Shown here: in pieces, positions 4,114-51,435 of the stretch | Layout of the letters: each line of letters opens with the position of its first letter | Position numbering within the stretch: the stretch's first letter is position 1 | IMG/VR virus record: IMGVR_UViG_3300023179_000013 | Coordinates: 104,947 to 168,946 of that record | Source of the DNA: a virus | Strand: one strand, 5' to 3' | DNA: 64,000 nucleotides | Made by a program: the position numbers and the translations under genes | The notes under the pieces: model-generated | What the model saw: the letters and a program-made list of their open reading frames with translations, nothing else | Databases searched by the model: none | Told to the model about the DNA's origin: nothing

Positions 4114-4961
4114 TGAAAAAAGCAGTATTATCCTTAAGTGGAGGAATGGATAGCTCTACTTTGCTGCTTCATCTACTTGCCCATGGCTATGAAGTAACAG
4201 CATTGTCCTTTGATTATGGACAAAAACATCGCGTTGAACTTGAGCGTGCTAAAGCATTAATAGAATATATTAATGATAGAATGTTCTATAACAAAACAGA
4301 TAATTATGTAAAACATCAAATTATCAAACTAGATGGATTACAACAATTACTCAACTCAGCACTTGTAACAGGTGGTAAAGACGTTCCTGAAGGTCACTAC
4401 GAGCAAGATAATATGAAAGAAACAGTAGTACCTAACCGCAATAAAATCTTTGCTTCATTAATTCAAGCAGTAGCATTATCAGTTGCTACTAAAGGTGAAA
4501 AACAAGAGTGTGTTATTGCGATGGGTATTCATGCTGGTGACCACGCTATTTATCCTGATTGTAGACAAGAGTTTCGCGATGCTGATTTTGAAGCATTTAA
4601 GATTGGTAATTGGGATTCTGAATTAGTATCACATTATACTCCTTACCTTCATACTGACAAGTTAGGCATTTTAAGAGATGGAGAAGTATGTTGTCAAAAA
4701 TTAGATTTAGATTTTGATGAAGTATATAAACGTACTAATACATCTTACAAACCTATTCCTATTATTGGAACATACGATGAAAAAATAGTATGGTACTCTG
4801 ATTATAAATCAGCAGCATCAGTAGAACGTATTGAATCTTTTATTAAACTAGGTCGTAAAGATCCTGTAGCTTATGCTGATGAAACTGGTCCTGTAAAATG
4901 GGAAGTAGCTAAAGCACACGTAGAAAAAGTATTAGAACAACATAGAACAACAAATTTGTAA
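4113..4961 (+). CDS. queC: 7-cyano-7-deazaguanine synthase
   Basis: SLSGGMDS PP-loop, FDYGQKH, VPNRN, YPDCR. Confidence 0.93.
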   Translation: MKKAVLSLSGGMDSSTLLLHLLAHGYEVTALSFDYGQKHRVELERAKALIEYINDRMFYNKTDNYVKHQIIKLDGLQQLLNSALVTGGKDVPEGHYEQDNMKETVVPNRNKIFASLIQAVALSVATKGEKQECVIAMGIHAGDHAIYPDCRQEFRDADFEAFKIGNWDSELVSHYTPYLHTDKLGILRDGEVCCQKLDLDFDEVYKRTNTSYKPIPIIGTYDEKIVWYSDYKSAASVERIESFIKLGRKDPVAYADETGPVKWEVAKAHVEKVLEQHRTTNL

Positions 4962-46517: not shown

Positions 46518-47057
46518 ATGCCTCGCCTCCGTCGCTCCAAATTAGACCCATTAAGTAGAATCATGACTCTCGGTGATATAGAAACCGATATAGTGAATGA
46601 ATTAATTCACAACATATATGAGATAAATGAGGAGGACGCAAAAAAACAAACTACAGAACCAATAAGGCTCATTATCAATTCATCTGGTGGGGAAATATAT
46701 AGTGGACTTGCTTTAATTGATGTAATTAGTACTTCGTTGACTCCAATCCACACAATGTGTCATGGTGCTGCCATGTCTATGGGATTGATAGTATTTGCTG
46801 CTGGTCATCACAGAACAGCGAGCCCTAATGCTACATTCATGTATCATGAAGCTATGTATGGTCTTGAGGGAAAAACAGCATACCATAGGCAAGAAATGAA
46901 AGAAGCAAATCGCATTGATAAGATATGTGATGATTACTTATTATCTCGCACTAAATTGACACAAAAATTATTAGATAACGTTAAAAATACACAAGCAGAA
47001 TGGTATTTCGATGCGAAAACAGCGTTGAAATATAATGTGGTAAATGAAATTCTGTAA
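46518..47057 (+). CDS. clpP: ClpP-like serine protease
   Basis: INSSGG, GAAMSMG (Ser), FMYH (His). Confidence 0.85.
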   Translation: MPRLRRSKLDPLSRIMTLGDIETDIVNELIHNIYEINEEDAKKQTTEPIRLIINSSGGEIYSGLALIDVISTSLTPIHTMCHGAAMSMGLIVFAAGHHRTASPNATFMYHEAMYGLEGKTAYHRQEMKEANRIDKICDDYLLSRTKLTQKLLDNVKNTQAEWYFDAKTALKYNVVNEIL

Positions 47058-48783: not shown

Positions 48784-49386
48784 ATGCCTGCACCTAAACC
48801 ACTTACTAAAGACGATATTTTAAAAGCAATGCGATTCACAAAATCGAATCGTGCTGCGGCTAGATATTTAGGTTGCTCGTATCAACACTACAAACCATTC
48901 GCTAAATTATTTCGAGTAGATGAGGGTGATCCAAATTCACCTACACTATTCGACTCCCATAAAAACCAATCAGGCAAAGGCATTCCCAAGTTCCTACCTA
49001 ATCGAAGAAAAGAACCAAACGTCAAACTTATCTTCGAAACAGGTACAGGTTGGGAATCCTTTACACCTGAAAAAATTAAAGCAAGAGGTGTAGCTGAGGG
49101 TTATTTGAAGGAAGAATGTTATCAATGTGGGTTCTGTGAGCGTAGAGTAACTGATTATAAAACACCTCTACTACTCAATTTCAAGGATGGTAATAAAAAT
49201 AACTATCTGCTTAATAATCTAGAATTATTATGCTATAATGATTATTTTCTACTTGTAGCTGACCCATTAACACCAGATCAAGTACGCCATATTGAAGATA
49301 ACCAAACACCTAAAGCAACAGCACATGAATGGGATTTAGATGAAGCACATTTAGAAAACATGAGAGCATTAGGATTATTGGATTAG
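48784..49386 (+). CDS. HTH plus degenerate HNH/zinc-finger protein
   Basis: SNRAAARYLGCSY; CYQCG...LNFKDGNKNNYLLNNLELLCYND. Confidence 0.6.
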   Translation: MPAPKPLTKDDILKAMRFTKSNRAAARYLGCSYQHYKPFAKLFRVDEGDPNSPTLFDSHKNQSGKGIPKFLPNRRKEPNVKLIFETGTGWESFTPEKIKARGVAEGYLKEECYQCGFCERRVTDYKTPLLLNFKDGNKNNYLLNNLELLCYNDYFLLVADPLTPDQVRHIEDNQTPKATAHEWDLDEAHLENMRALGLLD

Positions 49387-49949: not shown

Positions 49950-50023
49950 CGGGATTTAGTACAGTCCGGTAGTATGCTTGGTTTGGGACCAAGAGGTCGT
50001 AGGTTCGAATCCTGCAATCCCGA
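49950..50023 (+). tRNA. tRNA-Pro(TGG)
   Basis: Cloverleaf, CTTGG-TTTGGGA-CCAAG anticodon arm, GTTCGAATC. Confidence 0.93.
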
Positions 50024-50028
50024 CATAA

Positions 50029-50128
50029 TGAGAGGAGTAGACGAAAATCCTACACATAGTAAGGTGTACAACTTGCTGTTGATGGAGAAGTAGAAACATT
50101 GGAGGAAGTAATTAATTCTCCCCTCTCA
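50029..50128 (+). ncRNA. Unclassified cloverleaf-like structured RNA
   Basis: TGAGAGG/CCTCTCA closing stem plus four internal hairpins; no TTC T-loop. Confidence 0.45.
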
Positions 50129-50132
50129 ACAT

Positions 50133-50204
50133 GCTCTGTTCGAATAAGGGTTAGTTCACCTCCCTTTCACGGAGGTAATACGGGTTCGAATCCCGTACAG
50201 AGTA
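50133..50204 (+). tRNA. tRNA-Glu(TTC)
   Basis: CCTCC-CTTTCAC-GGAGG anticodon arm. Confidence 0.93.
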
Positions 50205-50239
50205 CCTGAAGACGGTGCGATAAGCATTGATGCCACGTC

Positions 50240-50340
50240 TGACCCTTAGCTCAGTAGGTTAGAGCAAACTTATAGTACTCACGCCACTACAAGCGTCGAG
50301 GAAATAAGTCGTGCCGCTGGTTCGATTCCAGCAGGGTCAG
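50240..50340 (+). ncRNA. tRNA-like RNA with 27 extra nt in the anticodon loop
   Basis: Intact acceptor, D and T arms; 34-nt anticodon loop region forming an extended hairpin. Confidence 0.8.
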
Positions 50341-50359
50341 CAAATTGATCTTTGAAATT

Positions 50360-50434
50360 GGACCCTTAGCTCAGTTGGTTAGCAGCGGCGCGCTCATAAC
50401 GCGAAGGTCGTAGGTTCAAGTCCTACAGGGTCCA
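50360..50434 (+). tRNA. tRNA-Met/Ile2(CAT)
   Basis: CGCG-CTCATAA-CGCG anticodon arm. Confidence 0.9.
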
Positions 50435-50439
50435 CGTTC

Positions 50440-50511
50440 GGTCCTGTAGTTCAACGGATAGAACAGCTGCCTTCTAAGCAGCGGATACAAGTTCGATTCT
50501 TGTCGGGACTA
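50440..50511 (+). tRNA. tRNA-Arg(TCT)
   Basis: GCTGC-CTTCTAA-GCAGC anticodon arm. Confidence 0.93.
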
Positions 50512-50517
50512 CAAAAA

Positions 50518-50549
50518 TTTGGAAGGCAAATATATAGTTCTTACATTTA
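50518..50549 (+). promoter_or_regulatory. Class-1 promoter of tRNA-Leu
   Basis: TTTG-GAA-GGCAAA-N11-TACATTTA, 6 nt before the tRNA. Confidence 0.6.
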
Positions 50550-50555
50550 ATGTAT

Positions 50556-50644
50556 GCCCTGGTGGTGAAATAGGTAGACACGCAAGACTTAAAATCTTGT
50601 GACCCGCAACGGTCGTGCCGGTTCGATTCCGGCCTAGGGCACCA
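50556..50644 (+). tRNA. tRNA-Leu(TAA)
   Basis: CAAGA-CTTAAAA-TCTTG, long variable arm, encoded CCA. Confidence 0.95.
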
Positions 50645-50656
50645 ATATTTATAAGT

Positions 50657-50983
50657 ATGGCCTGTCATTGTTTACATTTAAGAGACGCTACTGAATTTTA
50701 CTCGTTACTTAAACAACGTGACCCTGACTTAATCTCAAAGATGGTCAGATGTGTACTCAGTGCTGCCAAGCGAAATAAAGATAAAATAGACATATTTGAT
50801 ATCACGTTTAAATCAATGGATGAATTAACATTCACTATTGATAAGTCTCAATACAGAGAAATGTTAAGTAACTGTATGGCAGACATGATTACAGCTGAGG
50901 AATATGAATTATGTGCTGAAATCAAAAAGGTATTAGATAAGAAACCTCGCAAGTCGAGAAAGAAAAAAACAGAAGTTCTTTAA
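50657..50983 (+). CDS. UVR-motif protein, apparent paralog of 47808-48128
   Basis: AEEYELCAEIKKVL; ATG 50657 (the upstream GTG lies inside tRNA-Leu). Confidence 0.6.
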   Translation: MACHCLHLRDATEFYSLLKQRDPDLISKMVRCVLSAAKRNKDKIDIFDITFKSMDELTFTIDKSQYREMLSNCMADMITAEEYELCAEIKKVLDKKPRKSRKKKTEVL

Positions 50984-50988
50984 TTTAT

Positions 50989-51350
50989 GGGGGAGCCAGG
51001 TATTGCTCCGTAATGTGAAGGTACCACTACATGCAGACGGTTGGTAGAAGTCGTCTTTAAACAAACTGCAAACAACAACTGACGAAATGTCAACAATGAC
51101 CTTCGACGACCTTATGGCGTTCGTAGGTGCCGATTACGCTGTAGCAGCCTAATCCGCAAGGGGCAGCTGATAGCCTTGCAACAGAACAGCACTATAGGTT
51201 TCCTGTTTTTCCTAAAAAATAGGTGGTGGATGGCACGTTAACCAAAACTAGCGGCCCCAAATTACTGATCAGTTAATTCAGATCTAAGCATGTGATACGC
51301 TGGTGTTATTGTTCCTTACGGATACACGGGTTCGATTCCCGTCTCCTCCA
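50989..51350 (+). ncRNA. ssrA: tmRNA
   Basis: GGGGGAG/CTCCTCC-A acceptor with G3:U pair, GGTTCGATTCC T arm, tag frame ending DYAVAA-stop. Confidence 0.92.
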
Positions 51351-51404
51351 CAAGTACTTACTCCCCTTCCCATAAAACAGGGCGCTTAGAGTAAGTCTTT
51401 TCTT

Positions 51405-51435
51405 AAGGGTGGTTCGCTAGCGAACCGCCCTTTTT
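51405..51435 (+). terminator. Intrinsic terminator after tmRNA
   Basis: GGGTGGTTCG/CGAACCGCCC stem plus TTTTT. Confidence 0.85.

Follow-up and report, generated by a model that had tools for sequence, protein, structure and literature searches.

A family of phage tRNA-shaped RNA genes with a conserved AGUA/GAA internal loop and a variable hairpin in place of the anticodon loop

The DNA analysed here (the window, 64,000 nucleotides long) closes a complete viral record of 168,946 bp with direct terminal repeats, of which it makes up the final 64 kb, and it contains a tRNA/tmRNA cluster in which one gene has the shape of a tRNA but an anticodon arm of unusual build. The cluster and its surroundings are organised as follows:

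49950-51432, plus strand: the transcription unit, comprising tRNA-Pro, a 103-nt RNA, tRNA-Glu, the unusual gene, tRNA(CAU), tRNA-Arg, tRNA-Leu, tmRNA and a terminator
49950, plus strand: tRNA-Pro(UGG)
50133, plus strand: tRNA-Glu(UUC)
50205-50239, plus strand: 35-nt leader between tRNA-Glu and the unusual gene
50240-50340, plus strand: the whole tRNA-shaped RNA gene, 101 nt, with CCA not encoded
50360, plus strand: tRNA(CAU)
between tRNA(CAU) and the tmRNA, plus strand: tRNA-Arg(UCU), then tRNA-Leu(UAA)
50989-51351, plus strand: tmRNA
51405-51432, plus strand: strong terminator

The 35-nt leader is, by alignment, conserved among most of the close relatives of this phage, but it is absent in one of them (locus L013) and is thus not essential. 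The gap between tRNA-Pro and tRNA-Glu is filled in the window by a 103-nt RNA-like element (50029-50131, plus strand; -27.6 kcal/mol, z = -2.2), which is closed by a stem of 7 bp and encloses three or four hairpins arranged as in a cloverleaf, with AGUA occurring four times but neither a D nor a T loop; in most relatives these two tRNA genes are separated by only 2 nt, and locus L059 carries a different filler of 85 nt. The peptide tag of the tmRNA is unusually long in relatives, with 23 to 25 residues ending in ADYA(V/L)AA, while ARAGORN reports only ADYAVAA in the window, and a phage ClpP gene (46518-47057) is found a few kb from the tmRNA. Phage tRNA regions are the usual place for homing endonucleases, and an open reading frame of 200 aa just upstream of the tRNA cluster (48784-49386, plus strand) weakly resembles an HNH endonuclease (PHROG 14736, E 3e-6). 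When the small open reading frames near the gene were considered as possible partners, no informative families emerged, the only matches being this HNH-like one and DUF4494. As for the host, one of the proteins encoded downstream has a C-terminal sorting domain of the type IX secretion system, which points to a member of the Bacteroidota.

The unusual gene itself is made up of the following elements, all on the plus strand:

50240-50246, plus strand: 5′ strand of the acceptor stem, TGACCCT, pairing with AGGGTCA at 50333-50339
50249-50265, plus strand: D arm, GCTC / AGTAGGTTA / GAGC, with G18 G19, unchanged in 20 of 20 variants
50267 and 50310, plus strand: A27 and C43, a mismatch below the pairs of the lower helix
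50268-50273, plus strand: 5′ strand of the lower (anticodon-stem) helix, ACTTAT, pairing with ATAAGT at 50304-50309 (RNAfold)
50274-50277, plus strand: AGUA strand of the putative loop E (bulged-G, S-turn) motif, with its partner GAA at 50301-50303 and the closing pair C50278-G50300
50278-50300, plus strand: upper hairpin, CTC-ACGC-CACTACAA-GCGT-C-GAG, with a 7-bp stem and a bulged C at 50297
50285-50292, plus strand: apical loop of 8 nt, CACUACAA, at the top of the upper hairpin
50311-50315, plus strand: variable loop, GTGCC
50316-50332, plus strand: T arm, GCTGG-TTCGATT-CCAGC, whose first pair covaries
50340, plus strand: discriminator G73

The body is that of a complete cloverleaf, with a 7-bp acceptor stem, a D arm containing G18 G19 and a T loop of the GTTCGAT type, and it is kept in 20 variants. 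The Rfam tRNA model (RF00005) matches the gene from end to end over 50240-50340 with 42.7 bits (E 6e-7, cut-off 29), but to do so it has to pass over 40 nt of the anticodon arm. An earlier note, written from the letters of the window, had described the acceptor stem, D arm, T arm, lower stem and upper hairpin, and each of them lies where that reading had put it; the minimum free energy structure predicted by RNAfold is the same fold, at -34.3 kcal/mol with a z score of -3.3, and none of 200 shuffled sequences did equally well. The same reading had estimated the anticodon arm to be 27 nt longer than normal, and a homologue that lacks the insert (L004) aligns to the gene with a gap of exactly that length. 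ARAGORN calls the gene as Val-CAC without an intron in one mode and as Ser-GGA with a 25-nt intron in another, and since these two calls are incompatible, no unique anticodon can be read in it.

We looked for relatives of the gene in 59 related viral loci, fetched using the adjoining 629-aa protein, and enlarged the family by pattern scans of viral and metagenome collections, in which GGAA formed part of no search pattern. These searches yielded 20 distinct versions on around 30 viral and metagenome contigs, and the family members occupy a constant slot in the tRNA/tmRNA cluster, directly after tRNA-Glu. A blastn search with the 101 nt against 50,697 GenBank phage records found no relative, with matches only to the 5′ 29 nt of ordinary tRNAs, and in 185,579 species genomes of cellular organisms, scanned twice, no family member turned up, only tRNAs interrupted by group I introns and tRNA fragments. 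The gene is kept by a set of bacterial viruses related to one another. A covariance model trained on the family, a check that the earlier note had proposed, places its members (105-119 bits) well apart from ordinary tRNAs: the gene in the window scores 105.6 bits and its relatives 111 to 119, an insert-less homologue 80, and ordinary tRNAs 57 at most, the best of them being tRNA(CAU).

The variants fall into two types according to the lower helix. In three of the 20, including the one in the window, this helix has 6 bp, with two inner A-U pairs found only there (type 1), while in the remaining 17 it has 4 bp and a single nucleotide separates the lower stem from AGUAC (type 2). Most variants have the A27-C43 mismatch. 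The upper stem ranges from 5 to 7 bp with a central mismatch or bulge, and the apical loop, which is rich in A and C, from 7 to 10 nt, with YCAA at its end in 12 of the 16 hairpin types. At the discriminator position, 17 variants have G, three have A and the insert-less forms have C, and the pair 3-70 is A-U in 17 variants and G3.U70, the alanine identity pair, in three (L059, L174 and L178). One clade, represented by L004/L098 and L126, lacks exactly the insert.

Two features of the family show that the RNA is under selection. For one, across six phages the 58-nt body shows a mean pairwise identity of 96.4%, while in these clusters the tRNAs for Pro, Glu, Met and Leu reach 79.6-86.6% and tRNA-Arg 95%; the nucleotides of the tertiary core are all invariant, and the near-invariant body includes U8, A14, G18 G19, the GUGCC variable loop and the T-loop. 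The other is that pairing is kept where the sequence changes. RNAalifold finds four pairs with double compensatory changes. In the acceptor stem, C5-G68 is changed to U-A in L180; pair 28-42 of the lower stem is G-C, G.U or A-U depending on the variant; the first pair of the T-stem is A-U in 11 variants, G-C in eight and G.U in one; and the third pair of the upper stem is C-G in ten and U-A in six. The upper stems differ widely in sequence and are nevertheless paired, as in ACGC/GCGU, ACAC/GUGU, GCG/CGC, GUG/CAC, AAGG/CC.U and UGGC/GCUG. Given that the MAFFT alignment of the inner hairpin is structurally unreliable, we used an alignment-free swap test, in which the 5′ hairpin half of one variant was joined to the 3′ half of another, giving 240 chimeras from 16 native hairpins. 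The native hairpins had a mean of -3.3 kcal/mol and the chimeras one of +0.7, and the few chimeras that were as stable as natives all came from near-identical classes. The U.G pairs present in several variants would become C-A mismatches on the opposite strand, which indicates that the selected molecule is the RNA of the plus strand. The earlier note had taken the intact pairing as an argument against decay and homologues with compensatory changes as the evidence to look for, and the 20 variants, with the compensatory changes detected by RNAalifold and the swap test and with an unusually conserved body, bear it out and effectively exclude decay.

The most conserved feature of the insert, which the earlier note did not mention, is the AGUA/GAA motif, the sequence 5′-AGUAC...GGAA-3′ being invariant in all 20 variants. 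AGUA opposite GAA, with a C-G pair adjoining on the side of the sheared pair, is the composition of the loop E or sarcin-ricin bulged-G S-turn motif, and the two strands are directly opposed in a 4x3 internal loop. The identical local sequence, (Y)AGUAC...GGAA(C), occurs in 23S/28S rRNA at the sarcin-ricin loop and in archaeal and eukaryal 5S rRNA at loop E. The S-turn is a classic docking motif for proteins and RNA. In the work on the T-box Specifier Loop, the loop E motif is described as consisting of a sheared A.G, a trans U.A, a parallel A.A and a bulged G (PMC2879506). From this agreement in sequence, we infer that the internal loop of the gene is a loop E motif and would adopt the S-turn in three dimensions. 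The resemblance to the sarcin-ricin loop ends at the tip of the hairpin, where the GAGA tetraloop is replaced by the variable stem of 5 to 7 bp. A K-turn reading of the internal loop was rejected because the sequence does not fit, and a bulge-helix-bulge was rejected likewise. Mimicry of 5S rRNA was also considered and set aside; the 5S rRNAs of Chryseobacterium and Chitinophagaceae carry the bacterial loop E rather than AGUA/GAA, so there is no evident mimicry of host rRNA.

As regards its parentage, the normal genes nearest in body similarity are the tRNA(CAU) genes of these phages, of the Met/Ile2 type, some of which share the identical acceptor stem TGACCCT/AGGGTCA and carry A73. The earlier note had seen an Asn/Gln-like identity in the acceptor end, and this did not hold up, the body being like that of tRNA(CAU) instead. 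An alanine identity was likewise discarded, G3.U70 being found in only three of the 20 variants, and with a discriminator that may be G, A or C and a 3-70 pair that may be A-U or G.U, there is no support for the identity set of any one synthetase. Because the best matches, both to the covariance model and in the body, are tRNA(CAU) genes, the gene is probably a diverged duplicate of the adjoining tRNA(CAU). The two have in common the acceptor stem (in some relatives), the D arm, the type of T arm, the operon and presumably the processing; in contrast to tRNA(CAU), the unusual gene has neither a 7-nt anticodon loop nor CAU, its arm is longer by 22 to 27 nt with the putative S-turn, and its discriminator is G, A or C rather than A.

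Several other oversize or interrupted tRNA-like loci came to light in the same searches. At L089 (IMG/VR contig 3300042691_047309, around 4384-4487), a tRNA(CAU) has an insert of 30 nt between C34 and A35 that forms a GUGUUA/UAACAC hairpin without the AGUAC/GGAA motif, a short interruption that is not of group I. L147 and the group L072/L087/L136 have tRNA-like genes of excess length (102 nt and 122 nt), in which the acceptor, D and T arms are normal and the anticodon or variable regions are long and GC-rich. The minus-strand loci L102 and L146 (around GGTGTAGGGGTGCACAGC) are rich in tRNA fragments and identical except for unrelated cassettes of 21 and 26 nt bounded exactly by AGTAC and GGAA; we rejected these as a second AGTAC...GGAA module, given that the region folds differently from the family described here, and the shared boundaries are probably a coincidence. 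Among cellular genomes, a Chitinophagaceae MAG (L202) and a Chryseobacterium (L200) have tRNA genes with anticodon-arm inserts of around 40 to 50 nt that start with AGTAC, have no GGAA partner and are not members of the family.

The earlier note had left two readings side by side, a non-decoding mimic and a tRNA with a protein-spliced mini-intron, having judged the insert far too short for a group I intron. The last point is confirmed, as 22 to 27 nt compare with around 200 nt or more for an intron with a P1-P9 core, and cmscan gave no group I match at E<=1. Of the two readings, the comparative data favour the mimic. A protein-dependent mini-intron would be of a new kind, in which an endonuclease reads the S-turn and cuts on either strand, after which the host's RtcB or another ligase joins the halves into a tRNA that decodes through AAA or GAA as its anticodon; we consider this unlikely. 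The insert does sit exactly in the anticodon loop, and an invariant boundary motif around a variable stem is what would be expected of a splice-site signal, but there is no 3-4-3 bulge-helix-bulge, as the unpaired strands lie opposite each other and not 4 bp apart. The insert-less L004 has a canonical-looking 7-nt loop, UUAAAAU, with U33 and A37 (Phe-AAA in ARAGORN), and its exact gap is how precise intron loss would look; however, its sister L126 has an identical body with three loop differences and a defective loop, and because the bodies are identical and the loops differ, the loop region is not maintained by decoding. Excision at a fixed position would leave the 17 type 2 variants with a loop of 6 nt without U33, or of 7 nt with A33, and the type 1 variants with a self-complementary AU-NNN-AU loop that would zip shut, so that a 7-nt anticodon loop with U33 and purine 37, absent from the gene, is not restored in any variant. 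Furthermore, the implied anticodons, both for Phe, do not suit a body of the tRNA(CAU) type with a variable discriminator. The host could provide RtcB, which is encoded in the Bacteroides control genome, but profile searches of the complete 169-kb phage genome found no splicing endonuclease or RNA ligase, with no EndA, RtcB, Rnl2-type or T4 Rnl1-type ligase (PF01974, PF01139, PF09414 and PF09511, the positive control for PF09511 being silent). A CCA-adding enzyme is likewise absent from the phage genome. Precedent exists in that "enigmatic" introns with no known splicing route have been described in other phages of Bacteroidota, namely in tRNAs of the Lak megaphages (Devoto et al. 2019, PMC6784885). 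The Lak inserts, however, have 79 to 114 nt, include an element resembling a T arm (GGTTCGAAT) and yield a canonical anticodon loop when removed, whereas ours has 22 to 27 nt, a loop E motif and no T-loop, and leaves no consistent anticodon loop. The AGUAC-hairpin-GGAA module was found in none of the other tRNAs among around 1,250 in 2 Mb of related phage DNA, and being confined there to one gene, it shows no sign of being a mobile intron.

Two further explanations concern what the hairpin might do as it stands, or whether it does anything as an RNA. In the Specifier Loop of the T-box of B. subtilis tyrS (PDB 2KHY), the upper half is a 7-nt loop E motif, AGUA/GAA, followed by a triplet and an A on the 3′ side (PMC2879506). 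The strand order of our gene is the same, with AGUA on the 5′ strand, then GAA, a triplet and A on the 3′ strand, and the motif stands atop an internal loop; one may imagine a trans-acting tRNA binder in which the S-turn makes the bases 3′ of GAA point outward, where they would pair with another tRNA's anticodon and thereby shield or sequester it. The triplets, AUA, AAA, CAA and ACA (each followed by A), are all codons ending in A, the class served by the phage's own tRNAs, but the commonest of them, AAA, has no matching tRNA-Lys in the clusters, and the predicted folds leave 0 to 2 unpaired nucleotides after GAA, with type 1 fully paired. These two facts, that the bases are mostly paired and that no tRNA-Lys accompanies the AAA type, weaken the idea. 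The gene also differs from a T-box in having no K-turn, distal tRNA-elbow platform, antiterminator or Rfam T-box match and in being located in a tRNA rather than an mRNA leader, and we regard such a role as very unlikely. Finally, the gene could be a decaying tRNA pseudogene, or a DNA-level element that landed in a tRNA gene by chance, for example a site for a nuclease or for recombination at the palindrome AGTACT. Both ARAGORN and Rfam do handle the gene as a tRNA of aberrant form, AGTACT is palindromic over its 6 bp and the HNH-like open reading frame lies 0.85 kb upstream, but this explanation hardly seems credible for a body that is more conserved than most of the real tRNAs alongside, with compensatory changes in both body and hairpin, G.U pairs that work only in the plus-strand RNA and not one variant with disabling mutations among the 20.

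On a narrow balance of probability, then, we favour an unspliced, non-decoding tRNA-shaped RNA, derived from a phage tRNA(CAU), that would act by binding a protein or another RNA. Of the alternatives left by the earlier note, it is thus the mimic that gains, most variants having no canonical loop after excision, the discriminator being variable and the phage encoding no splicing enzymes. The unspliced state rests on comparative logic, and both the processing of the RNA and the existence of any binding partner are, like it, deductions from sequence. Similar combinations of a non-decoding, tRNA-shaped module with a helix carrying a protein-binding internal loop are found in the Y RNA YrlA, in the tRNA-like domain of tmRNA and in viral tRNA-like structures. 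YrlA is circularly permuted relative to our gene, its two ends lying within the long helix. The gene itself was tried as a Y RNA and rejected, with 22.5 bits in Rfam against a cut-off of 69, the wrong span and no Ro-binding sequence; the phage genome contains no Ro60/TROVE gene.

How such a molecule might arise and work can be sketched as follows. A phage tRNA(CAU) gene would have been duplicated, keeping its body and core, while the anticodon loop was swapped for a loop E internal loop under a short variable hairpin. The gene would be transcribed together with the tRNA/tmRNA operon, and host RNase P and RNase Z would release the RNA, to which CCA would be added as it is to tRNAs. The product would be a stable L-shape, with an anticodon arm around 10 stacked layers above the normal length, and would be unable to read codons. 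Its body, conserved in sequence beyond the needs of a cloverleaf, which argues for recognition by a specific partner, would be recognised by some tRNA-binding factor, and the S-turn hairpin would then either block the usual action of this factor on the anticodon loop or bring in a second partner.

A part as a mimic or decoy in the conflict between phage and host over tRNAs appears the most likely role. The recent literature presents tRNAs as a main battleground between bacteria and phages, with PARIS, retron effectors, OLD, Schlafen and Cas12a3 among the systems involved, and the phage tRNA countermeasures described there are all decoding replacement tRNAs. With so many such defences now known, it is tempting by analogy to suppose that the RNA might lure away a host nuclease or toxin directed at tRNAs; the earlier note had proposed anticodon nucleases, synthetases or EF-Tu as possible targets. 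In its most definite form, the tRNA(CAU)-type body of a phage-made decoy would draw a host tRNA-targeting immune nuclease or toxin, to which the S-turn hairpin would offer an uncleavable, tight-binding arm; stated so specifically, we think the proposal rather unlikely, and put it forward only tentatively.

In full-text searches of the literature, we came across no tRNA described as having a loop E hairpin in place of its anticodon loop. The object is well defined and, at 100 nt, easy to synthesise, and the bulged G, the U of the motif and swaps of the stems offer mutational handles. If the RNA is spliced after all, it would represent a new and very small class of bacterial introns with the S-turn as splice signal. 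If it is a mimic, these phages would maintain a conserved RNA that combines a tRNA body with a protein-recognition motif in the position of the anticodon loop, which amounts to a different strategy, that of mimicry. And if the decoy idea proves true, tRNA-directed immunity would have its first RNA inhibitor, as opposed to the known supply of replacement tRNAs.
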